64,000 bases of DNA. It comes from an uncultured Chloroflexia bacterium (GTDB taxonomy: Bacteria > Chloroflexota > Limnocylindria > Limnocylindrales > CSP1-4). The translations under genes and the position numbers were made by a program. This document shows positions 37,371-49,625 of this stretch, one piece after another. How positions within the stretch are numbered: position 1 is the first letter of the stretch; every line of letters begins with the position of its first letter. The stretch covers positions 1,935,032 to 1,999,031 of the forward strand of contig CAVPYV010000001.1 in assembly GCA_963710105.1 (NCBI GenBank), written 5' to 3'. Under the pieces are notes generated by a model. It saw only the letters and a program-made list of their open reading frames with translations, did not search any database and was not told the origin of the DNA.

Positions 37371-37463
37371 CCGAGGGGTGACGTATCCTGCGCGAAACCG
37401 GTGGCGGGCTGCGCTCACACGACGCCGCCACCGGTTTTCCCATACCCGAGCCTGGAGGCGTGC

Positions 37464-37736
37464 GTGAGCTCGAACGTCGGTCAGAACTACCCGTACACGA
37501 GCGAGACCGAGGCCGAGCGCGCGACGCGGATCGGGGCGCTCGTCGAGGCGCGCGAGGGCCTGTCCGACACGCTCCGGGCCGAGACGACGCCCCTCGACGC
37601 CAACGAGCGCTGGTGGGTCTGGAAATGCCCGACCACGGGCTGCCCGGGCCTCCTCCACGTCGCCGGCTACGCGGCCGAGAAGCACGCCCTCTACGTCGTC
37701 TGCGACGGGACGTGCGGCAAGACCTTCCTGCGCTGA
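37464..37736 (+). CDS. Small zinc-ribbon-like protein (90 aa), function unknown
   Basis: GGAGG at 37454-37458 with 5-nt spacing to GTG 37464. Cys pairs WKCPTTGCPG and VVCDGTCGKT. Confidence 0.5.
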   Translation: MSSNVGQNYPYTSETEAERATRIGALVEAREGLSDTLRAETTPLDANERWWVWKCPTTGCPGLLHVAGYAAEKHALYVVCDGTCGKTFLR

Positions 37737-38512
37737 CCGCGCCCCGTCCGGACGCGACGGACGCCGGGGAGCTGCGGCGGGCCCGGCGCCGGCTCGTCCT
37801 CGACGGGCTGGGGATCATCGTCAGCGCGTTCGGGTTCGGCTTCGTCTTCGGCCTGACGGCCCGGACGAACGGCCACTTCTCGGTCATCGAGGCGATGGCG
37901 TTCAGCCTGATCGCGTTCGCCGGCGCCGCCCAGTTCGCGGCGATCGGTTACGTCGTGGCCGGCCTGAGCTGGCCGCTGATCGCGCTCCTGACGTTTCTGC
38001 TGAACGCGCGCCACGTCCTCTACTCGGCGGCGCTCGCGCCGTGGTTCCGCGGGCGGAGCCTTCTCGAGCGGGCGGTCGCCGCCCAGCTCCTGACCGACGA
38101 GGCCTTCGCCCTCTCGATCGCCCACTTCCGGCGGCTCAGCCGGTACGACGGGTTCGGCTACTGGTACCCCGCGATCGTGACGACCCTCATCCCGTGGAAC
38201 ATCGCGACGTTCGCCGGGGTGATGATCGGCGACGCGATCGTCGAGCCGAGCCGGTTCGGCATCGACGTGATCTTCCCGGCGGCGATGGCCGGCCTGGCGA
38301 TCGGGCTCCTCTCCGGCCGCCGCGAGGTCGTCGCGGCGCTGGCCGGCGCGGCGATCGGCGTCGTGGCGTCGCTGGCCGTGAGCCCGACGATCGGGGTCAT
38401 CGCCGGCGGCGTCGCCGGACCGTTCGTCGGCCTGCTCGTGCCGCCCCGTCCCGGCGCAGCGACCGGGCTGGACGGGACCGCACTCTCCCCGGTCGGCGCG
38501 CCGCAGCCATGA
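37712..38512 (+). CDS. azlC: AzlC family branched-chain amino acid transport protein
   Basis: GFGFVFGLTA...SLIAFAGAAQFAAIG...NARHVLYSAAL is the typical AzlC core. The start is uncertain; GTG 37712 is the first plausible in-frame start and overlaps the preceding small ORF. Confidence 0.75.
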   Translation: MRQDLPALTAPRPDATDAGELRRARRRLVLDGLGIIVSAFGFGFVFGLTARTNGHFSVIEAMAFSLIAFAGAAQFAAIGYVVAGLSWPLIALLTFLLNARHVLYSAALAPWFRGRSLLERAVAAQLLTDEAFALSIAHFRRLSRYDGFGYWYPAIVTTLIPWNIATFAGVMIGDAIVEPSRFGIDVIFPAAMAGLAIGLLSGRREVVAALAGAAIGVVASLAVSPTIGVIAGGVAGPFVGLLVPPRPGAATGLDGTALSPVGAPQP

Positions 38513-38838
38513 GCGTCGACCTCGTCCCGCTGGCCGTCCTGATGTTCGCGGTGACGTACCCGTCGCGGGCGATCGGCCTGCTCAACCCGGCGATCGACCG
38601 GATGCCGCGGCGGGCCCTCGCCTACCTCCAGCTGGTCGGGCCCGCGGTCCTCGCCGCGCTGGCCGCCGTCAACGTCATGGTCGTGACGATCGACGGACGC
38701 TCCGCGTTCACGATCGGCCTGCCATGGCTGTCCGTGGCGGCCTGCATCGCCCTCGTCGCATGGCGGCGGAACCTGTTCCTGGGCCTGCTCGCGGCGGTCG
38801 CGATCGCCATCGCCGGGCGGGCCGCCGGGCTGTCCTGA
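38509..38838 (+). CDS. azlD: AzlD family branched-chain amino acid transport protein
   Basis: 109-aa, 4-TM-like protein (LAVLMFAVTYPSRAIG...). The ATG overlaps the azlC stop (ATGA). Confidence 0.8.
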   Translation: MSVDLVPLAVLMFAVTYPSRAIGLLNPAIDRMPRRALAYLQLVGPAVLAALAAVNVMVVTIDGRSAFTIGLPWLSVAACIALVAWRRNLFLGLLAAVAIAIAGRAAGLS

Positions 38839-39414: not shown

Positions 39415-39807
39415 TCAGCCGCGGCGGGCCTCGAGCTCGACCTCGACGAGCATCGACGGATCGATGAGACCGGCGACCCGGACGAGGGTCGCGGCCGGGC
39501 GGATCGAGCCGAACAGCTCCCCGTTGACCGCGGCCACCGCGGCCGCGTCCTCCGGCCGGACGATGTACATCCGGGTCCGGACCACGTCACCGGCGGCGAA
39601 CCCCGCCTCCTCGAGGGCACCGAGCGCGATCGCGATCGCGGCCCGCGCTTGGGCAGCCGCGTCGCCGGCATGGAGCGAGCGCCCGTCGGGACCCGCGTCC
39701 GTCGTCCCCGCGACCCAGCACGAATCGCCGACCGCGACCGCCCGGCTGTAGCCGTAGCGGGCCTCGTAGGGGCTGCCGGACGAGACGAGCCGCCGCTCCG
39801 GGCTCAC
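39415..39807 (-). CDS. RidA/YjgF family protein
   Basis: YSRAVAVGDSCWVAGTT...RTRMYI...PAATLVRVAGLIDPSMLVEVELEA. The GTG start overlaps the M20 peptidase stop (GTGA). Confidence 0.85.
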   Translation of the reverse strand: MSPERRLVSSGSPYEARYGYSRAVAVGDSCWVAGTTDAGPDGRSLHAGDAAAQARAAIAIALGALEEAGFAAGDVVRTRMYIVRPEDAAAVAAVNGELFGSIRPAATLVRVAGLIDPSMLVEVELEARRG

Positions 39808-41060
39808 GAGGTCGCGGCGGGTCCCGCCTCCCGCCAGCCGCGGACGACCGGGTCGCGCCCGATGGCGAGGAGCAGTCCCGCGAGCAGGGCGGTCCGCGGA
39901 ACGATCGAGGCGACCTCGAGGTACTCGGCCGGCGAGTGGTCCATCCCGCCGATCGGCCCGAGACCGTCGATCGAGGGGACCCCCATCCCGGCGGTCGTGT
40001 TCGCGTCGGATGCGCCGCCGGTCGCCGCGTCGTGGATCTCGAACCCCAGCCGCCGGGCGACCGCCTGGGCGTGCTCGACGAGCCGCCCGGACCGCTCGAG
40101 CTTCTCCATCGGCCACCAGCGGGCCATCGGCTCGAGGTCGGCGGTGACGTCCGGAACGGCGAGCGAGCCGAGCATCGTCCGGATCTCGGCCTCGGCCGCC
40201 TCGAGGTCGGCCCGGCGGACGGCGCGGATGTCGACCTCGAGCGAGCAGCGCTCGCCGACGACGTTCGGGCGAGTCCCGCCGGCGATCACCCCGACGTTGA
40301 TCGTCACGCCAGGCCACCGCCCGTTGAGGGCGTGGAGGCGGGTCACGAGGTCGGCCGCGGCGAGGATCGCGGAGCGGCCCTTCTCGGGCTCGACGCCGGC
40401 GTGGGCGGCTCGACCGCGGACGGTGATCCGGGCGTCGAGGATCCCCTTGCGCGAGGAGACGATGTCGCCGTTGGCCCGGGCGCACTCCAGGACGAGGCAG
40501 GCGTCGGCGTCGGCGGCGACCGCCCGGATGTGGGGGGTCGAGCTCGGCGAGCCGATCTCCTCGTCGGGGTTGGCGACCCAGGTGAGTCGCTCGAACGGCA
40601 GGCGGCCGGCGGCGGCCAGCGCCTTCACCGCGTAGAGCCCGGCCAGCAGACCCGACTTCATGTCGGTGACGCCGGGCCCGCGGGCGATCCCCTCGGCGTC
40701 GATCGCGAACGGCCGCTCGGCGGCGGTGCCCGGGTCGAACACGGTGTCCATGTGGCCGATCAGGACGATCCGCGGGCCGCCCGCCGTCCCGCGCTCCCCG
40801 TCCCAGGTGCCGATGACCGTCGCCCCGCGGCTGCCCTCCGGGTCGGGCCGGACCTCGACGGTCGCGCGGTTGGCGGTCATGAACCCGGCGACCCAGCGCC
40901 CGACCTCGTCGACGCCGGCCGGCGTGTACGAGCCGCAGTCGATGTTGACGAGCCGGGCCAGGTCGGCGAGATACGCCGGCTCGTCGGCCCGGATCGCGGC
41001 CTGCAGGGCGAGCAGCTCGGCGTCGGCCACGGCCTCGCCCGGTGCGGTCGTCGTGTCCAT
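39804..41060 (-). CDS. M20 family metallopeptidase (carboxypeptidase G2 / ArgE / DapE-like)
   Basis: LIGHMDTVF, GPGVTDMKSG, NPDEEIGSPSS, and a dimerisation insert followed by GGASDAN. Confidence 0.9.
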   Translation of the reverse strand: MDTTTAPGEAVADAELLALQAAIRADEPAYLADLARLVNIDCGSYTPAGVDEVGRWVAGFMTANRATVEVRPDPEGSRGATVIGTWDGERGTAGGPRIVLIGHMDTVFDPGTAAERPFAIDAEGIARGPGVTDMKSGLLAGLYAVKALAAAGRLPFERLTWVANPDEEIGSPSSTPHIRAVAADADACLVLECARANGDIVSSRKGILDARITVRGRAAHAGVEPEKGRSAILAAADLVTRLHALNGRWPGVTINVGVIAGGTRPNVVGERCSLEVDIRAVRRADLEAAEAEIRTMLGSLAVPDVTADLEPMARWWPMEKLERSGRLVEHAQAVARRLGFEIHDAATGGASDANTTAGMGVPSIDGLGPIGGMDHSPAEYLEVASIVPRTALLAGLLLAIGRDPVVRGWREAGPAATS

Positions 41061-41066
41061 CGGCCA

Positions 41067-41072
41067 AGTCTA
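41067..41072 (-). promoter_or_regulatory. -10-like hexamer TAGACT, 6 nt upstream of the M20 peptidase ATG
   Basis: The minus strand reads ccgccTAGACTtggccgATG. Confidence 0.35.
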
Positions 41073-41149
41073 GGCGGCGGCCGAGGCCGCCGCCGGGCCG
41101 CCGAAACGGTCGCGTCGCGCCCCGATCGGGGCGTTATCCTCCCCGAACC

Positions 41150-42964
41150 GTGCGACTGATCGAGATCCGGCTGCTCGAGGGACCGAACGTCTACCGGCTC
41201 GAGCCGGTGGTCAAGATCGAGGTCGCGATCGGCCGGCGACGGACGTGGTATGGCCAGCGGAGCCCCGGTCGCCACGCCCTGGTCCATCTCGGCGCCGACG
41301 TCCCCGCCCGCGAATGGCCGCTCCCGATCGAGGAGCTCGTTGGCTGGCTCCGTCGCCTGCGGGTCGATCACGGCGAGGGACGTGGCGGCGTCGTCGTCCA
41401 CCGCTCGTCCGACCCCGGCCACTGGATCGTGACCTACGGCTGGACCGGGGCGGAGCGGGCCCGGACGATCGCCGAGGCGGCACTGGCCCTGACGGAGCGG
41501 GACGTGTCGTCGGTCCGGCGGACCCGCCTGACCGGCAGCCAGGAGCGCCTCCTCGCCCGCTGGACCGCCCGGATCGCCGACGCGCGGGCGACCCCGCCGG
41601 CCTGGGTCCGCGACGCCGATCGGCGGATCCCGATCGTCTCGATCACCGGGACGAACGGCAAGAGCACGGTCACCCGGCTGCTCACCCACATCCTCAAGGT
41701 CGCCGGCCGGCGAGTCGGGACGACGACCTCGGACGGAGTCCTCGTCGACGAGCGGCTCGTCGAGCCCGGCGACTGGACGGGTCCCGGCGGCGCGTGGCAG
41801 GTCCTCGAGCGGTCCGACGTCGACGTCGCCGTCCTCGAGACCGCCCGCGGCGGGCTGGTCCTGCGCGGGATGGGCTACGAGTCGAACGACGCCGCGATCG
41901 TGACGAACATCTCGTCGGACCATCTCGACCTCCAGGGAATCCACACCCTGCCCGAGCTCGCCGAGGTCAAGTCGACCGTCGTCCGGGCCACCCGCCCGGA
42001 CGGCTGGGCGGTGCTGAACGCCGACGACCCGCTCGTCGCCGGGATGGCTCGCCGGGTCCGGGCCAACGTCGCAGTCTTCTCGCTCGGCGACGGGGGCGCC
42101 GCCGCGGCGACCGTCCGGCGGACCGTGGCCGGCGGCGGACGGGCCTACGTCCTGCGCGACGGCTGGCTCGTCGAGATCGACGGCAGCCGCCCCTCGAGCG
42201 GCGCGGCCGACGGCGGTCGGCCGGCGGATGGCGGCGACCCGGTCGAGCACCGGATCCTCGAGGTCGAGCGCGTCCCGATCGCCCTCGGCGGGCTCGCCCG
42301 CCACAACGTCGCCAACGCCCTCGCCGCGGCCGCCGCTGCGCGTGGGATCGGGATCACCCTCGCGCAGCTCCGCGACGGCCTCGCCGACTTCCATCCGACC
42401 TCGGAGCGCTCGCCGGGCCGGCTCAACCTGTTCCGGGTCGGAGCGCGGATCGTCGTCGTCGACTTCGCCCACAACGAGGCCGGGCTCCACGCCGTGCTCG
42501 ACGTCGCCGACGGGATCGCCGGCGGGGCGGCCGGTCGGGCCGCCCCGGTGACCGCGATCGTCGGGACCGCCGGCGACCGGCCGGACGACACCCTCCGTGG
42601 GATCGGCCGGATTGCCGCCAAGCGGGCCCAGCGGGTCGCGATCAAGGAGACGCTGAAGTACCTCCGCGGGCGGAGCCGGGAGTCGATCGTCGGGGAGATC
42701 ATGGCCGGCATCGTGTCGACCGGCCGATCGGCCACGGACGTCCCGATCTATGAGTCGGAGACGGAGGCGCTGCGCTCCGAGCTGGCGCGCAACGGCGAGG
42801 GCGCCGCCCGGCCCGATGCGGCGCGGGTCATCGTTCTGATGTGCCACGAGGAGCGAGAGGAGGTCTTCGCCCTCATCGGCAAGCTCGGCGGCCGCCCGAT
42901 CGATGTCGGCAGCGAGCTGACGACCCTGGTCCCGCGTCTCCAGGCCCGGCCGCGCCGGAGCTGA
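41150..42964 (+). CDS. Cyanophycin-synthetase-like ligase: CphA N domain plus Mur-ligase (M) domain, lacking the ATP-grasp domain
   Basis: VRLIEIRLLEGPNVYRLEPVVKIEV parallels LKIVETRILRGPNYWAREPVVRMVV of the cphA in this window. It is followed directly by IPIVSITGTNGKSTV, ETARGG, VDFAHNEAG and GTAGDRPDD, matching the cphA M-domain boxes IPIVAVTGTNGKTTT, EVARGG, IDYCHNVDG and GIPGDRRDD. 604 aa versus 958 aa. Confidence 0.8.
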   Translation: MRLIEIRLLEGPNVYRLEPVVKIEVAIGRRRTWYGQRSPGRHALVHLGADVPAREWPLPIEELVGWLRRLRVDHGEGRGGVVVHRSSDPGHWIVTYGWTGAERARTIAEAALALTERDVSSVRRTRLTGSQERLLARWTARIADARATPPAWVRDADRRIPIVSITGTNGKSTVTRLLTHILKVAGRRVGTTTSDGVLVDERLVEPGDWTGPGGAWQVLERSDVDVAVLETARGGLVLRGMGYESNDAAIVTNISSDHLDLQGIHTLPELAEVKSTVVRATRPDGWAVLNADDPLVAGMARRVRANVAVFSLGDGGAAAATVRRTVAGGGRAYVLRDGWLVEIDGSRPSSGAADGGRPADGGDPVEHRILEVERVPIALGGLARHNVANALAAAAAARGIGITLAQLRDGLADFHPTSERSPGRLNLFRVGARIVVVDFAHNEAGLHAVLDVADGIAGGAAGRAAPVTAIVGTAGDRPDDTLRGIGRIAAKRAQRVAIKETLKYLRGRSRESIVGEIMAGIVSTGRSATDVPIYESETEALRSELARNGEGAARPDAARVIVLMCHEEREEVFALIGKLGGRPIDVGSELTTLVPRLQARPRRS

Positions 42965-42969
42965 GCGAG

Positions 42970-43488
42970 GTGGCCTGGGACGATGGGTTCCGGAGGCCCG
43001 AGGGACTCGATCGCGCGATCACGAGCGTTCACTCGGCCGACGACCTCGCGGCGGCCTATCGCGAGGCGGCCGACCGGGGCCGGCGGTCGGCGCGCGTCGA
43101 CGGGTCGCCGTACGTCGTCCAGCTCGGCGGGTCGGTCGAGGGGATGGCGGTCGACCTCGTCGTCCGGATCCTCCGGGCCGACGGGGGGCGGCAGCGGCCG
43201 AAGACGCGCCTCCGGGCGACCGGCTCCATCCGCGCCGGGGACGGGGGATCCACGCTCGAGGTCCGGATCGCCCCCGACGACCGCCGGACCGCCGCCTGGA
43301 CGATGGGCGTCCCGGCCGCGGCCGTCGCGCTCATGCTCGTCGCCGGCGTGCCCGTCGCCGGCGTCATCGTCGTCGGCGGCCTCGCGGTCCCGAACGTGCT
43401 GCTGGCGATCCGATCCGGCCAGCGGTTCGTCCTGCGCTCGCTGAGCCAGGTCGAGGCGTTCCTCGAGGCGATCGCCCACGGAGGCTGA
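42970..43488 (+). CDS. Hypothetical protein with C-terminal TM segments (172 aa)
   Basis: GTG 42970 lies 6 nt after the ligase stop, with GAGCGAGG just upstream. TM stretch VPAAAVALMLVAGVPVAGVIVVGGLAVPNVLLAI. No family recognised. Confidence 0.45.
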   Translation: MAWDDGFRRPEGLDRAITSVHSADDLAAAYREAADRGRRSARVDGSPYVVQLGGSVEGMAVDLVVRILRADGGRQRPKTRLRATGSIRAGDGGSTLEVRIAPDDRRTAAWTMGVPAAAVALMLVAGVPVAGVIVVGGLAVPNVLLAIRSGQRFVLRSLSQVEAFLEAIAHGG

Positions 43489-43545
43489 ACGGCGGCGGCC
43501 GAGGCCGCTCGGAATCAGTCGCGGGCCTGGCGTCGACCCGCCCGG

Positions 43546-44631
43546 TCAAGCCCCGCCGGCGGCGGCGAGCAGCTCCTCGAGGCGGCGGAACGGCTGCCAG
43601 GCACCCTCCGACACGTTCGACTGGACGACGACCCGCTCGCCGCCGGCGAACGCCCAGCAGCGGCAGCTGAACCCGGGGTCCTCGCCGCTGTGGCCGATCC
43701 GGGTTGTCGGCCCCGCCCCGCCGTGGACGACGCCGAGCCCGTAGCCGGCCTTCTCGACCGGGCTGACCGCATGGGGTCCGATCATCCGCGCCCGGGTCGG
43801 CGCGGTGAGATACGCCGCGCCGGCCGGCCCGCGCCGGGTCAGGCCGTCGAGCGCCCGGACGAGGTCGGCCGCGGTGGCCTGCGCGCCGCCGTCCGGCAGG
43901 CCCATCGCCGGCATCGCGAAGACGTTCGTCCGCCAGGCAGCGGCCGGCGCCCCCGCCGGCGCCTCCGGATCGGGCGGCAGGTAGCCGACCGCCAGGTCGG
44001 GCTCGATCGCATCGAGGGCCCAGAACCCGCTCGAACGCATCCCGAGCGGCTCGAGCACCTCGGCCCGGACGAGATCCGGATACGGCCGTCCGGTGCGCTC
44101 CTCCAGCGCCAGGCCGGCGAGCACGTACGCGCCGTTGTTGTAGCGAGCGGCCGCGCCCGGATCGCCGGTCCGGGTCAGATCCCGCATCAACGGGACGAGG
44201 TCGCGCGCGCCGCGGATCGCACCCGGCGGCACGCGCTCCCAGATCGTCTCGTACGGCGGCCCGTCGTACTCGTCGGCGTAGTCGCCGACGCCGGACGTGT
44301 GGCTCAGGAGGTGGAAGAGGGTCACGCGCTCGTCGAGGTCGCTCGGCCGAAGCTCCTCCGGCAGGCAGTCGACGAGGCGATCGTCGTATCCGACGACGCC
44401 GCGATCGACGAGCCGGGCGACGGTCAGGCCGGTCAGGAGCTTGGTCGTCGAGGCGATCCCGAAGCGGGTCCCCGCGTGGTTCGCGATGCCGGCGGCACGA
44501 TCCGCGAGGCCGAGCGCGATCGTGAGCGGCTCCTCGTCGTCGTCGCCGGCAACGTGGACGACGCCGCTGAAGTCCTCGTCCGAGAGCCAGTCGCGATATG
44601 CCGCGACGTCGAGCCGGGCGAGCCGGCTCAC
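43546..44631 (-). CDS. Serine hydrolase, beta-lactamase / PBP4*-like family
   Basis: S-x-x-K motif FGIASTTKLLTG and YNNGAY (Y-x-N). 361 aa, GTG start. Confidence 0.85.
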   Translation of the reverse strand: MSRLARLDVAAYRDWLSDEDFSGVVHVAGDDDEEPLTIALGLADRAAGIANHAGTRFGIASTTKLLTGLTVARLVDRGVVGYDDRLVDCLPEELRPSDLDERVTLFHLLSHTSGVGDYADEYDGPPYETIWERVPPGAIRGARDLVPLMRDLTRTGDPGAAARYNNGAYVLAGLALEERTGRPYPDLVRAEVLEPLGMRSSGFWALDAIEPDLAVGYLPPDPEAPAGAPAAAWRTNVFAMPAMGLPDGGAQATAADLVRALDGLTRRGPAGAAYLTAPTRARMIGPHAVSPVEKAGYGLGVVHGGAGPTTRIGHSGEDPGFSCRCWAFAGGERVVVQSNVSEGAWQPFRRLEELLAAAGGA

Positions 44632-44767: not shown

Positions 44768-47644
44768 TCAGCCTTCCGGAACCTCGAACTCGCCCGGGTC
44801 GGCGAAGGCGGTGGTCCCGCGGGCGTGGCCCGCGGCCGCCATCGCCTCGCGGTAGACGCCGATCGCGTTGTCGACGCAGCACACCACGAGGTCGCCGGGT
44901 GCCGCCCGGCGGAGGCCGGCCCGGACGGCGGTCATCTCGTCGAGCATCTTCTCCGCCTTCAGGGTCCGGCCGCCATCGCCCCGCGCGGCGCGGATCCCGT
45001 CGATCACGTTGCCGGCAGACACGCCCGGGGCCCGGCCGCGGAGGTTGGCGTCCTCGCGGACGATGATCTCGTCGAAGGCGCGGGCCGCGATCGCCCCGTA
45101 CTCGCGCTGGTCGTCGTCGCGCCGGTCGCCGGGGATCCCGATCACGCCGATCGCCCGGCCGCTCCGGGTGTGGCCGTTCGAGGACGGCCCGATCCGGCCG
45201 GCCTTCGACTGCGGCTCGGTCATCATCCGTTCGACGAAGTCGGCCAGCTGGCGCATGCCGTCAACGTTGTGGCAGTAGTCGATCACGACGCGGATCCCGC
45301 CGACGTCGAGGAGGTTCAGCCGGCCCGGCGCCTGGAAGAACGAGGTCGAGAACGTCCGCAGCCCCTGGCGGATGTCGTGGAGATGGGCGCCGGCGGCCCA
45401 CGCGGCGGCGGCCGCGGCGAGCGCGTTCGCAACGTTCATCCGGGCCCGCCCGCCGAAGGTCGCCGGGATCAGGTGGGTATAGAGGACCGGCATCGTCCGC
45501 GGGCCATGGCGGAGGACGATCAGCTCGCCCTCGGGCCCGGGCTGGAGGACGAAGGCGGCGTTGCCACGGGCGGTGTGGCCATCGACCCGGTCGAAGCCGT
45601 CCTCGCCCTTGTGGGTCGCCATGCTGAACAGGACGACCCGGCCGGAGCAGTGCCGGCCCATCCGGTAGACGTAGCTGTCGTCGGCGTTGAGGACCGCCGT
45701 TCCCGACCGCGGCACCGCCTCCACGACGACGCCCTTGACGTTCGCCAGCTGGCCGAGCGAGTCGATGCCGCCGATGCCGAGGTGGTCGCCGGTGACGTTC
45801 GTCACGACCGCGACATCGTTGCGGTCGTAGCCGAGGCCCTCGCGCAGGATCCCGCCCCGGGCGACCTCGAAGACGGCCGTGTCGACGGTCGGGTTCTGGA
45901 GGACCATCTGGGCCGACTTCGGGCCCGACATGTCGCCCTTCTTGATCATCCGGCCGTCGATGACGATGCCGTCGGTCGAGGTCATCCCGACCCGCTTGCC
46001 CTTGAGCTTGAGGATGTGGGCGATCATCCGGACCGTCGTCGTCTTGCCGTTCGTGCCGGTCACCGCGACGATCGGGATCCGCGACGGCGAGCCCGGCGGG
46101 AAGAGGCCGTCGATGACCGGCCGGGCGACGTACTGCGGCTCGCCCTCGGTGGGGTGGGTGTGCATCCGGAAGCCGGGAGCGGCGTTGACCTCGACGATCG
46201 CCCCGCCGGTCTCGCGGACGGGCGTCGCGATGTCGGGGCAGATGAAGTCGATCCCGGCGATGTCGAGGCCGATGATCTGGGCCGCCGTCTCGGCGATCTC
46301 GACGTTGTCGGGGTGGGCCTCGATCGTCCGGTCGATCGACGTCCCGCCCGTCGACATGTTGCCGGTCAGCGCGAGCTTGACGAAGGTGTCCGCCGGCGGC
46401 ACGTCGTCGAGCTCGAAGCCCTGCTCGCGGACGAGGGACTCGGCGGCGGCGTCGAGGCCGATCCGGGTGAGGACCTTCTCGTGGCCGATCCCGCGCCGCG
46501 GGTCGGCGTTGGCGAGGTCGACGAGCTGGCGGACGGTTCGCTCTCCGTCGCCGACGACGCTGGCCGGGACGCGCTCGGCGATCGCGGCGACCTTGCCGCC
46601 GATGACCAGGCAGCGGTAGTCGTTGCCCGCGACGTAGCTCTCGACGACGAGGTCGCCGCTGCGGCTCTGGGCGCGGGCGCCGTGGAACGCGGCGCGGACC
46701 GCCTCGTCGCTCCGCAGGTCGAGGTGGACGCCCCGGCCGTGGTTGCCGTCGAGGGGCTTGACCACGCAGGGGAAGCCGATCCGGCGGGCGGCGGCGACGG
46801 TGTCCTCCTCGGTCGCCACGACGGCGCTCTTCGGGACGGGCAGGCCGGCCGAGTCGAGGAGCCGGTTCGTCAGGCTCTTGTCGCTGGCGATGTCGACCCC
46901 GATCGCGGACGTGATCGAGGTCATCGTCGCCCGGATCCGCTGCTGGTGGACGCCCTGGCCGAGCTGGACGAGGCTGTGCCGATCGAGCCGGATGTAGGGG
47001 ATGTCGCGGCTCGCCGCCTCGTCGAGGATCGCCTGGGTCGACGGCCCGAAGGCGGCCCGCTCGGCGAGCCGGATGAGCCGCTCGAGCTCGGCCATGAAGT
47101 CGAGGCTCGCGGTCTCGTCGTTCGGGGCGACGAGGTGGTTGACGAGGGCGACCGCGATCTTGCCGGCCTCGACGCCGACCGCCTCCTCGCGGAACTCGTA
47201 GATGACGTTGTAGCGGCCGTGCTCGCCGGTGCTCCGGGTCTTGCCGTGGCGGACGTCAGTGCCGGCGAGGTTCTGGAGCTCGAGGGCGATGTGCTCGGCG
47301 ATGTGGCCGGCCCATGTGCCCTCGCGGAGCCGGGTGATGAAGCCGCCCCGCCGGCCGAGGCTGCAGGCGTGGTCCTCGAGGCTCGGCAGGAGGCCGACGA
47401 GGGCGTCGGTGAAGCCCGGGATCTTGTTGCTCGGGAAGTCCTCGAGGACGCCGAGGTCGACGACCATCCGGACGACCGGCTCGCGGGCCCAGTAGTTCGG
47501 GCCGCGCAGGATCCGGGTCTCGACGATCTTCAGGGTCGGCTCGGGGCGGGTGCCGGTCGTGGGATTGTCGGCCGCGCGGCGACGCGGCTTCGCCGCCGTT
47601 TCGGTCGTCGTCCTGGACCGTGCCCTGGGTGCCGCCTCCGCCAC
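44768..47644 (-). CDS. cphA: Cyanophycin synthetase (N, ATP-grasp and Mur-ligase domains)
   Basis: N domain (ILRGPNYWAREPVV...), ATP-grasp domain (LLDSAGLPVPKS...VVKPLDGNHGRGV...) and M domain (VTGTNGKTTT, DYCHNVDG, GIPGDRRDD). GTG start with GGAGGG 4 nt upstream. Confidence 0.95.
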   Translation of the reverse strand: MAEAAPRARSRTTTETAAKPRRRAADNPTTGTRPEPTLKIVETRILRGPNYWAREPVVRMVVDLGVLEDFPSNKIPGFTDALVGLLPSLEDHACSLGRRGGFITRLREGTWAGHIAEHIALELQNLAGTDVRHGKTRSTGEHGRYNVIYEFREEAVGVEAGKIAVALVNHLVAPNDETASLDFMAELERLIRLAERAAFGPSTQAILDEAASRDIPYIRLDRHSLVQLGQGVHQQRIRATMTSITSAIGVDIASDKSLTNRLLDSAGLPVPKSAVVATEEDTVAAARRIGFPCVVKPLDGNHGRGVHLDLRSDEAVRAAFHGARAQSRSGDLVVESYVAGNDYRCLVIGGKVAAIAERVPASVVGDGERTVRQLVDLANADPRRGIGHEKVLTRIGLDAAAESLVREQGFELDDVPPADTFVKLALTGNMSTGGTSIDRTIEAHPDNVEIAETAAQIIGLDIAGIDFICPDIATPVRETGGAIVEVNAAPGFRMHTHPTEGEPQYVARPVIDGLFPPGSPSRIPIVAVTGTNGKTTTVRMIAHILKLKGKRVGMTSTDGIVIDGRMIKKGDMSGPKSAQMVLQNPTVDTAVFEVARGGILREGLGYDRNDVAVVTNVTGDHLGIGGIDSLGQLANVKGVVVEAVPRSGTAVLNADDSYVYRMGRHCSGRVVLFSMATHKGEDGFDRVDGHTARGNAAFVLQPGPEGELIVLRHGPRTMPVLYTHLIPATFGGRARMNVANALAAAAAAWAAGAHLHDIRQGLRTFSTSFFQAPGRLNLLDVGGIRVVIDYCHNVDGMRQLADFVERMMTEPQSKAGRIGPSSNGHTRSGRAIGVIGIPGDRRDDDQREYGAIAARAFDEIIVREDANLRGRAPGVSAGNVIDGIRAARGDGGRTLKAEKMLDEMTAVRAGLRRAAPGDLVVCCVDNAIGVYREAMAAAGHARGTTAFADPGEFEVPEG

Positions 47645-47703: not shown

Positions 47704-48138
47704 TCAGGACGACGGAAAGACGGCGATCGGGAAGCCCTCCCTCGCGGCCGCCTGAGCCAGGCGATCGTCGAGGGTGACGAACGTCAGGCTCGAGGGGTCG
47801 CCCTCGCCAGCGGTCACCGCCGCCGCCAGTTGCAGGGCGTCGCCCGCGCGCAGCGGGTGGACGCGAATCAGGCGAATGGCCGTGCGACGGATCGGCGCTG
47901 AGGGCTGCATCTCCAGCCACGCAGCGGCAAGGACATCGAGCCGCTCGATCGCCGCGCTGGTCGTCCTGTCATCGTTGAGGCCGTCGCGCTCGCGTCGGGC
48001 GATGGCGGAAGCGCACTCGATGCTCGTCCCCCACCACGCGACCATCTCCGGATCGCGTCGGTATTCGGCGCCGACCGACCGGCTGAGCTCCTCCTCGAGG
48101 AGCAGCGGAACGATCGCCGACGAGTCCCAGAACCTCAT
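47704..48138 (-). CDS. vapC: PIN-domain toxin (VapC-like)
   Basis: MRFWDSSAIV (first acidic residue), a middle Glu, RAGDALQLAAA and FVTLDDRL, the typical PIN acidic quartet positions. Confidence 0.85.
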   Translation of the reverse strand: MRFWDSSAIVPLLLEEELSRSVGAEYRRDPEMVAWWGTSIECASAIARRERDGLNDDRTTSAAIERLDVLAAAWLEMQPSAPIRRTAIRLIRVHPLRAGDALQLAAAVTAGEGDPSSLTFVTLDDRLAQAAAREGFPIAVFPSS

Positions 48139-48141
48139 CGC

Positions 48142-48435
48142 TCAGCGACCGGTTCGCCGCTCTTCGAGCAACGCGTCGAGGAGGCTCGCGCCAGGGGAGC
48201 CCGCGGGCCCGGGTTGGAGAATCAGGTCGACGGGTGGCGGCGTCACGCCACGTTTGGCGAGACCGGCGCGTTCGAGGCGGGCCGCGCGCCCATCGCCATC
48301 GCCTGCCCCGGTGATCGGCTCGAGTCGGGCCACGGGTGTCCCGCGATCGAGGATGAGGATGCTCTCGCCGCTCTTGACCCGGTCGATCAGCGCGCTGAGG
48401 CCGTTCTTGGCCTGGGTGATCGTCGCCGTCTTCAT
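48142..48435 (-). CDS. vapB: Phd/YefM-type antitoxin (VapB partner)
   Basis: MKTATITQAKNGLSALIDRVKSGESILILDRGTPVARLEP is a Phd/YefM N-terminal fold signature. It ends 3 nt before vapC. Confidence 0.85.
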   Translation of the reverse strand: MKTATITQAKNGLSALIDRVKSGESILILDRGTPVARLEPITGAGDGDGRAARLERAGLAKRGVTPPPVDLILQPGPAGSPGASLLDALLEERRTGR

Positions 48436-48584: not shown

Positions 48585-49427
48585 TCAGGACGAGGCCGCC
48601 TCCTCCACACCGCCGGGCAGGGCGTGCAGGGTCGGCGTCGCGAGCCGGTGCCGCCGGCGGAGGTCGAAGCGGTAGCCGGCCGGCAGCGAGTGGAGGACGA
48701 CGCCGCTGATCATCAGCGGCTTGTGGCCGCGGATCTCCCAGGCATCGGTCTCGGAGGCCGAGCCGTCGACGACGGTGATGCTCCCCCGTCCGATCACCTC
48801 CATCACGTGGTCGGGCCCGACGACGCCGGCGGTGTCCTCGTCGACGCCGAGGCCGAGCAGCGACGGGTTCTGGGCGATGAGCGAGAGGAGCCGCCCGAGC
48901 CGGTTCCGCTGCTGGAAGTGCTGGTCGACGATGACGCCCGGCAGCATCCCGAGCCCGGCCGCGATCTGAGCCATCCGGTGCTTCGGCGTCGCGCCGGACG
49001 CGCCGAAGGCGATCATGTGGCTGCTCATCGCCGACGCGCCGGCGGACGTGCCGGCCATCACCGCCCCGTGCCGGAACCGCTCGAGCATCGCGTCGGCGAG
49101 GCGCGTCCCGCCGATCGTCGAGGCAAGCTTGAGCTGGTTGCCGCCGGTCAGGAACACGCCGGTCGCATCGCGCAGCGCCAGGGCCACGGTCTCGTCGTTC
49201 GCCTGGGGCCGGGTCGTCGCGTGCAGCGTCCGGACCGCCTGGACCCCGAGGTCGGTGAAGATCTGGCGGTAGCGCTCGCCGGCTTCGGTCCCGAGGCTCG
49301 ACGCGGTCGAGATCACCGCGATCGTCGCGTCGCGACCGCCGGCGAGCGCGACAAACCGGTTGAGGATCACCCGATCGCGGATCTTGTCCTCGGCCCCGCC
49401 GATGATGATCACGGTCCCGTCGGTCAC
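48585..49427 (-). CDS. cphB: Cyanophycinase (peptidase S51)
   Basis: VIIIGGAEDK, FLTGGNQ, the nucleophile box MAGTSAGASAMS, and DQHFQQRNRLGRL. GTG 49427 has AGGGAG 8 nt upstream; ATG 49472 is an alternative start. Confidence 0.9.
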   Translation of the reverse strand: MTDGTVIIIGGAEDKIRDRVILNRFVALAGGRDATIAVISTASSLGTEAGERYRQIFTDLGVQAVRTLHATTRPQANDETVALALRDATGVFLTGGNQLKLASTIGGTRLADAMLERFRHGAVMAGTSAGASAMSSHMIAFGASGATPKHRMAQIAAGLGMLPGVIVDQHFQQRNRLGRLLSLIAQNPSLLGLGVDEDTAGVVGPDHVMEVIGRGSITVVDGSASETDAWEIRGHKPLMISGVVLHSLPAGYRFDLRRRHRLATPTLHALPGGVEEAASS

Positions 49428-49625
49428 GCGCGCGCTCCCTGAACTCGGATCGGGGAAGGATAGCGCGGGCATCGAGCCGAGACCCGCCGCCGGCCCGCGC
49501 GGCGGGTTGCGGTTCGGGGTCGGATGCTTCGCCGGCCCGACCCGCGCCAAAGGATCCGGCGAGCCGGATGACACCCCTCGCGCGGACGACGGTCGCGACC
49601 CGGGCGTCTGCGAGAATGCGCCGGG

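Follow-up and report, generated by a model that had tools for sequence, protein, structure and literature searches.

Our analysis of a 64,000-nucleotide stretch of genome from an uncultured Chloroflexia bacterium (hereafter the window, meaning the whole of that stretch) identified a conserved, widespread and uncharacterised variant of cyanophycin synthetase, in which the N and Mur-ligase-like (M) domains of the canonical enzyme, CphA1, are present and the ATP-grasp (G) domain between them is not. The gene for this G-less CphA paralogue, referred to here as the N-M ligase or N-M protein, lies at 41150..42964 on the + strand (604 aa, GTG start, stop included) and was delimited using the listing of open reading frames (ORFs), domain scans and the ratio of non-synonymous to synonymous substitution rates (dN/dS). 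Two enzyme types, CphA1 and CphA2, have so far been recognised in the synthesis of cyanophycin, a polymer for nitrogen storage, and the original prediction, which was made from the sequence of the window alone, agrees with the literature in giving the characterised architectures as N-G-M for CphA1 and N-G plus a reduced M domain for CphA2 (PMC10273328, PMC9427784). CphA1 extends the C terminus of the chain with Asp by means of the G domain, after which the M domain activates the beta-carboxylate of this Asp by phosphorylation with ATP and attaches Arg to it by an isopeptide bond; the N domain tethers the polymer (PMC9427784, PMC9262961). The N-M protein is probably an ATP-dependent ligase that is accessory to CphA1 and adds an amino acid to the Asp side-chain carboxylates of cyanophycin, of its backbone or of short precursors, the acceptor, the amino acid and the role being those that we infer.

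Profile alignment of the full-length protein with HHalign matched residues 1-166 to CphA1 residues 1-184 (94.8%) and residues 156-579 to CphA1 residues 482-900 (100%, E 3e-100). The G domain, which comprises roughly CphA1 residues 185-481 (~300 aa), is in effect deleted from the N-M protein. The original prediction had described the ATP-grasp segment as simply absent, and this was upheld by the jump in the profile from CphA1 residue 184 to 482 and by Pfam, which found no ATP-grasp family in the N-M protein and nine in the CphA1 encoded in the same window. There is also no ATP-grasp fold between the N region and the P-loop in the AlphaFold2 model, where one helix (residues 129-144) is followed by a strand (162-166) that leads into the P-loop. 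The segment that carries this helix (residues 121-158; 41510..41623, + strand; profile alignment and AlphaFold2 model) corresponds to the CphA1 helix that links the N domain to the G domain, and here it enters the M domain directly.

Residues 1-120 (41150..41509, + strand) form a reduced CphA-type N domain, as assigned by HHalign, the AlphaFold2 model and Foldseek. In the model this domain consists of strands at residues 2-9 and 20-26, a helix at 58-73, strands at 82-85 and 91-97, and a helix at 101-116, and it contains a conserved LEGPNVY loop. The homology of this region to CphA1 is clear from profiles and structure, despite a weak single-sequence signal. The Pfam N-domain model PF18921 had no match in the N-M protein, and a phmmer search with residues 1-160 against 1.84 billion representatives returned 146 proteins, CphA1 not among them, nearly all of which were close relatives, fragments or frameshifted copies of its own family. 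The claim that the N-M protein and the window CphA1 have a common N-domain start was supported by BLASTP, which aligned the two N termini with 14/40 identities (E 2e-5), and was backed by profiles and structure. A shallow profile of the N region gave an HHalign probability of 62% against the CphA1 N domain, and a profile of 35 N regions, which took in distant relatives, gave 97.2% (E 3e-11, 119 columns) against 65 CphA1 N domains, including four from solved structures. The N domain of the N-M protein is without Cx19HxxEH, the endo-cyanophycinase peptidase motif defined in the CphA1 N domain (PMC9262961): the Cys-bearing segment is missing, and the helix that would hold HxxEH reads EELVGWLRRL.

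The AlphaFold2 model, based on an 80-sequence alignment, had a predicted local distance difference test score (pLDDT) of 89.1 and a predicted template-modelling score (pTM) of 0.90. With 45 close homologues only (79-100% identity) the pLDDT was 61.6, and it was the addition of homologues of 35-48% identity that raised it. A Foldseek search of the model against the PDB placed the Synechocystis enzyme (SuCphA1; 7LGJ, 7LGQ and 7LG5) at the top, with ~920 columns and a query template-modelling score (TMq) of 0.71-0.72. These alignments start at the N terminus, bridge a gap of the size of the G domain and run on into the M domain, so the comparison with CphA1 structures that had been proposed as a check yielded an end-to-end match. 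Alignments to other CphA1 chains covered the M domain only, with TMq values of 0.61 or lower, and the MurE structures recovered by the search scored ~0.5. A local aligner would presumably bridge a 320-residue gap only when given a strong-scoring N-terminal match.

The M domain of the N-M protein is a complete, CphA1-type domain. Its core (residues 159-416; 41624..42397, + strand), which was assigned using Pfam, mapping to TeCphA1 and conservation in 98 M domains, holds the P-loop TGTNGKST (41645-41668, + strand) together with S194, E230, the ETARGG box, N253/D257/H258, K274 and H385. Its lid, the Mur-ligase C-terminal domain (residues 417-604; 42398..42961, + strand; Pfam, residue mapping and conservation), bears R424, H441, GTAGDRPDD and KYLRGR. 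All of the M-domain boxes that had been listed as common to the two proteins (IPIVSITGTNGKST, ETARGG, DFAHNEAG and GTAGDRPDD) were confirmed in the N-M protein. Pfam Mur_ligase_M (PF08245) matched residues 165-397 with 84.1 bits (cutoff 24), and Mur_ligase_C (PF02875) matched residues 423-546 with 27.9 bits, just under its cutoff of 28.4, which is passed in homologues (for example, 56.7 bits in Kribbella). A domain scan had been expected to return the N domain and both Mur-ligase domains with no ATP-grasp; the Mur-ligase pair and the lack of ATP-grasp stood, the C-terminal domain by a near miss, whereas the N-domain model was silent. The NCBIfam cyanophycin synthetase model TIGR02068 was matched at positions 474-842 only (E 8e-111, 371.5 bits, cutoff 850), the M domain was 40% identical to that of the window CphA1 over 378 aa (BLASTP, E 3e-64), and the best PDB sequence matches by phmmer were five CphA1 enzymes of solved structure, over the M domain only (E ~1e-69 to 7LG5).

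In TeCphA1, residues N497, K499, T500, T522, E558, R731 and H748 bind ATP/Mg2+ and F692 stacks on the adenine (PMC9427784). By alignment these correspond, in the same order, to N169, K171, S172, S194, E230, R424, H441 and H385 in the N-M protein, and a His is also found at the F692 position in the Tatumella and Acinetobacter enzymes. The 98 M domains compared include 77 from CphA1, in which 70 columns are at least 90% conserved, and 42 of these 70 are kept in both of the G-less types described below (type A, to which the N-M protein belongs, and type B). All active-site motifs are among the 42 columns: the kept set includes the P-loop, E230, the ARGG box, N253, DH (257-258), K274, R424, D438, H441, N442, G475, R477 and the RG of the RGR motif (R506-G507). 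Other CphA1-conserved residues are altered, with S577, R842, D845, F857 and D858 (window CphA1 numbering) replaced in the N-M protein by G214, P478, T481, A493 and Q494, and S577 plus the four lid residues are changed in both G-less types. As the Mur-ligase C-terminal domain binds the incoming amino acid, which is established for MurE, these lid differences suggest a substrate specificity other than that of CphA1's own M domain.

The ORF proved to be intact, as had been proposed. The 604-aa translation from the GTG at 41150 is identical to a public-database protein of the same length (P0001), and at least 120 homologues of 79-100% identity, several of them from 'Candidatus Limnocylindrales' metagenome-assembled genomes (MAGs), span the entire 604 aa (lengths 569-806 aa, most 588-634). 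This end-to-end coverage favours the GTG at 41150 over an upstream GTG at 41042. The GC content of the region around the gene is 72-77%, and the near-leaderless, TATCCT promoter that had been suggested found no support, as a sigma-70 consensus promoter and terminator scan of 40900-43700 came back empty. Comparison with three orthologues gave dN/dS values of 0.13-0.30, alike in the N and M parts, and the gene is under purifying selection. The description of the gene as 'not an obvious decayed duplicate' was borne out both by these values and by its position in a separate clade (see below). As far as can be judged from sequence, the residue conservation and dN/dS together form the pattern of a working enzyme, rather than that of a relic or of a structural module such as the CphA2 M domain.

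A search seeded with a divergent member of the family (P0258) gave a wider set of proteins, with 35-48% identity over the full length including the N region, from Thermomicrobiales, other Chloroflexota, Nocardioidaceae and Vicinamibacterales. This family, termed type A, is characterised by an N region of ~150 aa with the motif E-x-R-x-L-[ED]-G-x-N, joined directly to a CphA-type M domain, to which the N-M protein conforms, and the LEGPNVY loop is the best-conserved stretch of the N region. Type A loci were found in Chloroflexota and Actinomycetota (Kribbella, Terrabacter and Nocardioides), and include the chromosomes of Kribbella sp. NBC_00889 and Terrabacter sp. BE26, Terrabacter aerolatus NBRC 106305, Nocardioides mesophilus, and MAGs of Chloroflexia, Thermomicrobiales and Limnocylindrales. 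Gene context was surveyed in one genome per GTDB species, using tblastn with separate domains, plus six added look-ups; the survey provides examples rather than frequencies, and its counts are among the matches listed.

On this basis, cphA1 was found within 10 kb of the type A gene, mostly directly convergent with it, in 19/20 informative loci (those with enough flanking sequence), which accords with the expectation that orthologues co-occur with cyanophycin genes. In these cphA1-linked loci cphB was likewise present, except in L013, whose locus stops inside cphA1. In the window, the canonical cphA1 (44768..47644, - strand; assigned by TIGR02068 and Pfam) is convergent with the N-M gene, and both it and the cyanophycinase gene cphB (48585..49430, - strand; TIGR02069 264.7 bits, cutoff 126.6; Pfam Peptidase_S51), the extent of which was set from tblastn and from orthologues of 278-280 aa, fall inside 10 kb of the N-M stop at 42964. 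The linkage is specific to cphA1-cphB, because all other neighbours vary between lineages, with an M20 peptidase and RidA in Chloroflexota and two short-chain dehydrogenases/reductases in Nocardioidaceae.

Phylogenetic inference used neighbour-joining trees of the 98 M domains. Type A was set apart from CphA1 as a separate clade with 94% bootstrap support, as was type B with 96%, and neither was nested in the CphA1 groups. Mean M-domain identity was 36% between type A and CphA1, 35% between type B and CphA1, and 37.5% between types A and B; the two types grouped together in the BLOSUM62 tree, and with Kimura distances they did so with only 27% bootstrap support.

Several type A genes departed from the common form. 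The proteins from Terrabacter and a related Actinomycetales MAG are extended at the C terminus by a further domain of ~170 aa (L015:2447-4630, L017:10001-12184 and L025:11585-13831, the last on the - strand), which in L017 is a TPR domain (Pfam TPR_5, E 7e-24), and this fusion suggests a protein-protein interaction module on the ligase. In Nocardioides mesophilus (CP060713.1; L003:9507-11218), the N and M parts lie in different frames with an overlap of ~49 nt, and annotation covers the M part alone (405 aa). A genuine frameshift, an error in sequencing or a gene that is truly split could each account for this arrangement. In L004 and L005 the reading frame shifts close to the 3' end of the gene, apparently through faulty assembly, as cphA1 is likewise split in L004.

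The second type of G-less gene, type B, was located immediately 3' of cphA1 and on the same strand in 6/6 informative loci. Its hosts belong to Proteobacteria (Luteimonas lutimaris, Lysobacterales, Steroidobacteraceae and other Gammaproteobacteria), Myxococcota (Plesiocystis pacifica and Nannocystis) and Planctomycetota (a Planctomycetaceae MAG), and the loci comprise L068:11324-13294 (Luteimonas lutimaris), L044:9485-11161, L048:11336-13057, L052:11407-13188, L065:11332-13110, L071:62-1750 and L081:11585-13300. The N-terminal 170-250 aa of these proteins start with DSRRLTGPN and show a weak similarity to CphA1 residues 1-198 (HHalign 65%, E 6e-5), a span that takes in the N domain and some 15 residues at the beginning of the G domain. 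The M domain is again CphA-type (TIGR02068 positions ~477-850) and starts at CphA1 residue 459, placing the deletion boundaries at ~199-458, unlike those of type A. Type B proteins therefore share with the N-M protein an N region followed by an M domain, the lack of an ATP-grasp core and a location beside cphA1-cphB, whereas they differ from it in having another N region with a G stub, in lying downstream of cphA1 on the same strand and in their phyla. No Pfam or NCBIfam model covers either type, and their N regions match nothing in these collections. A different pairing of reduced and complete CphA was seen in tandem pairs of full N-G-M cphA genes, mostly in Betaproteobacteria (L064, L067, L069, L073, L074, L077, L078 from Nitrosomonas europaea, L079, L082 and L085), where the match of the upstream copy to the M domain is confined to the initial 135-270 residues.

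The reading of the N-M protein as a side-chain ligase rests on the retention of the N-plus-M unit with an end-to-end fold like that of SuCphA1. In the M-site complex of SuCphA1 (7LGQ), a cyanophycin analogue is flanked by the N domain and the M core (PMC9427784), which in CphA1 together line a groove for the polymer at the M active site, and a hydrophobic N-domain loop of CphA1 (Y14, I17), to which the LEGPNVY loop of the N-M protein corresponds, touches the M domain (PMC9262961). An enzyme of this kind would have arisen from a cyanophycin synthetase that lost its G domain. It would bind cyanophycin, the poly-Asp backbone or short precursors, and would use ATP to join an amino acid to free Asp side-chain carboxylates, the candidate sites being internal or de-arginylated Asp residues, chain ends or short primers. 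The enzyme would work beside the CphA1 encoded next door without extending the backbone itself, and it may serve to fill or re-charge Asp residues left unmodified, or to attach a residue that is not Arg. The functions put forward in the original prediction, namely the modification or re-arginylation of cyanophycin or work on a different polymer, are reasonable candidates. It does not appear from the sequence of its neighbour to be a stand-in for a defective enzyme, since the original prediction of a canonical 958-aa cyanophycin synthetase in the window was correct: this protein scores 1134 bits against TIGR02068 (cutoff 850), contains Cyanophycin_syn, the nine ATP-grasp families and both Mur-ligase domains of Pfam in N-G-M order, has the motif C-x19-HIAEH and retains an intact P-loop. 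The changed lid residues, together with this fully intact partner, argue against simple redundancy.

Some points weigh against a side-chain ligase of cyanophycin. If the N-M protein arginylated the C-terminal Asp, which would be its simplest activity, it would repeat what the M domain of the adjacent CphA1 already does, and its selective advantage would be unexplained. The changed lid residues are only suggestive, as the Arg-binding site of CphA1 has no definition in the literature searched. The net charge of the N region is bimodal across the family, with no signal for an acidic (poly-Asp) acceptor, and this inconsistency means that the charge gives no clue to the acceptor. One Sphaerobacteraceae locus (L012) has no cphA1 in the 10 kb downstream, with only 3.4 kb available upstream, and the survey of loci from which the linkage was drawn is incomplete.

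Alternatively, the N-M protein may be a Mur-type ligase with a different carboxylate as its substrate, for instance a precursor of the cell wall, some other poly-amino acid or a small metabolite, with its link to cphA1-cphB due to nitrogen regulation or ancestry only. This would fit the alteration of several CphA1-conserved lid residues and the variation by lineage in the neighbours other than cphA1 and cphB. We consider it unlikely, as the cphA1-cphB linkage holds across phyla while the remaining neighbours change, as the N domain that is kept is known only from cyanophycin synthetases, and as the MurT, PgsB, FolC and MurC-F models score far under their cutoffs, with no GatD-like partner adjacent to the gene.

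A role as a primer or dipeptide synthetase, in which free Asp or very short peptides receive Arg at the beta-carboxylate to give beta-Asp-Arg or primers for CphA1, would use the chemistry of the M domain, the catalytic residues of which are intact. CphA1 is very slow at the first steps and depends on primers (PMC9262961), and tight linkage to cphA1 would also fit. Nevertheless, the window CphA1 has Cx19HxxEH, which has been linked to primer independence (PMC9262961), so that a separate primer maker seems unnecessary, and the retained polymer-anchoring N domain points to a polymeric substrate; a primer synthetase is thus quite improbable.

That the N-M protein is a non-catalytic partner of CphA1, for example a regulatory or scaffolding subunit that affects chain length or granule formation, is very improbable. 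The P-loop, the Mg2+ ligands, the lid and the ATP-contacting Arg and His vary little or not at all in a family whose divergence has reached ~37% identity, which argues for selection on catalysis. This is despite the oligomerisation of CphA1 through its G and M domains (PMC9427784), the persistence of the CphA2 M domain as a purely structural module (PMC10273328), and the apparent translational coupling of type B to cphA1 (10-nt gap in L068), each of which would suit such a partner. Lastly, a cphA1 copy that has lost the G domain and is drifting to a pseudogene, as the adjoining full-length cphA1 and the different frames of the Nocardioides mesophilus N and M parts might suggest, is effectively excluded by the dN/dS values, by an intact ORF and conserved catalytic residues in many genomes, and by a separate clade with ~36% identity to the CphA1 M domain, which indicates an old gene and not a recent copy.

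Among known systems, CphA1 (TIGR02068; PDB 7LG5/7LGJ/7LGQ, 7WAC, 7LGM and 7LGN) has in common with the N-M protein the N fold, the M core and lid, and the ATP/Mg2+ residues. The N-M protein differs in being without the ~300-aa ATP-grasp G domain, in its shortened N domain that lacks Cx19HxxEH and in the changes at lid residues R842/D845/F857/D858. The missing G domain and a TIGR02068 score below the cutoff set it outside CphA1, and the loss of this domain predicts that it can neither extend the backbone nor make cyanophycin from Asp, Arg and ATP. CphA2 is also a reduced derivative of CphA1 in which a non-catalytic N domain is kept (PMC10273328), but there the G domain is retained and the M domain is truncated and inactive, with no P-loop or lid (PMC10273328, PMC9427784); the N-M protein is the reverse, with a complete M domain and no G domain.

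The ligases MurC-F and the pseudomurein ligases, which provide the next-best structures (TMq ~0.5), share the central ATP-binding and C-terminal domains and the acyl-phosphate mechanism. The N-M protein, in contrast, has no nucleotide-sugar-binding N domain, scores 110 bits against the murE model (cutoff 257) and has no cell-wall cluster nearby. The lipid II amidotransferase MurT/GatD is similar in that MurT is derived from a Mur ligase, no longer has the customary N-terminal domain and acts on the carboxylate of a side chain, yet the N-M protein scores only 33 bits against the MurT model NF052464 (cutoff 800), is without DUF1727 and has no adjacent GatD-type glutaminase. The PgsB and FolC models scored 27 and 46 bits, and no close homologue was found with an unrelated biochemical assignment, which, had there been one, was to count against the proposal. 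Given these scores and the gene context, we rejected functions like those of MurT (amidation), PgsB (poly-gamma-glutamate synthesis) and FolC. The full-text literature searched contained no description of a CphA without a G domain, although an earlier mention elsewhere is possible, and no G-less CphA figures in a bioinformatic survey of cyanophycin gene clusters published in 2023. Literature matches to 'CphA3' were unrelated Aeromonas beta-lactamases.

More tentatively, the G-less CphA paralogues might constitute a third class of cyanophycin enzyme, side-chain ligases that act in trans, which could either attach a residue other than Arg, giving a distinct cyanophycin, or re-charge a de-arginylated backbone, allowing Arg to be stored and released without depolymerisation. 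That side-chain ligation is separated from backbone synthesis by a conserved gene next to cphA1-cphB, in five or more phyla, implies that cyanophycin metabolism has a step not yet described, which could be modification in trans, repair, re-charging or the incorporation of a different amino acid. G-less genes have cultured hosts (Kribbella, Terrabacter, Nocardioides, Luteimonas and Plesiocystis) and CphA1 can be assayed by established means. Tailored cyanophycins are an active goal in biotechnology, and a side-chain ligase that works alone would be of use in making them. In databases, homologues of the N-M protein are named only as 'Mur ligase family protein' or, by automatic (JGI) annotation, as 'cyanophycin synthetase'; the latter label is misleading for G-less genes, and surveys of cphA that count by M-domain similarity will over-count.

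The N-M gene is accompanied in the window by genes other than cphA1 and cphB. Between it and cphA1 there is a serine hydrolase of the beta-lactamase family (43546..44631, - strand; Pfam Beta-lactamase, E 1.6e-50) with weak AmpH and D-aminopeptidase matches, the position of which is conserved in L001 and L002 only. On the other side, divergent from the N-M gene, lie an M20 metallopeptidase resembling glutamate carboxypeptidase (39804..41060, - strand; Pfam Peptidase_M20 and M20_dimer; NF004788 274 bits, under the cutoff of 349) and, downstream of this, a RidA/YjgF-family gene (39415..39810, - strand; Pfam Ribonuc_L-PSP, E 1e-18). This divergent pair is found in Chloroflexota relatives (L001, L002 and L006) and not in Actinomycetota. 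The close relatives L001 and L002 (82-88% identity) have the order RidA and M20 peptidase, divergent from the N-M gene, which converges on the serine hydrolase, cphA1 and cphB.

The stop codons of the N-M gene and the serine hydrolase gene are separated in the window by a spacer of 581 bp (42965-43545, 76.6% GC), compared with 12-58 bp in L001 and L002; the spacer had no match in any locus compared, and an ORF overlapping the 3' end of the N-M gene (42841-43488, + strand) had no family match. Between cphA1 and cphB, a PIN-domain toxin (47704-48138) and a Phd/YefM antitoxin (48142-48435) are encoded on the - strand. The same site is occupied in L001 by an antitoxin gene and a small unannotated gene, and by nothing in L002, where cphA1 and cphB adjoin. 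Further upstream in L001 and L002 there are genes for a gamma-glutamyltranspeptidase, AzlCD and an MFS transporter, and AzlCD is also present in the window (37460-38838). In the window CphA1 itself, the conserved start of the N domain is preceded by 37 additional N-terminal residues, among which Ala, Arg, Thr and Pro are abundant.

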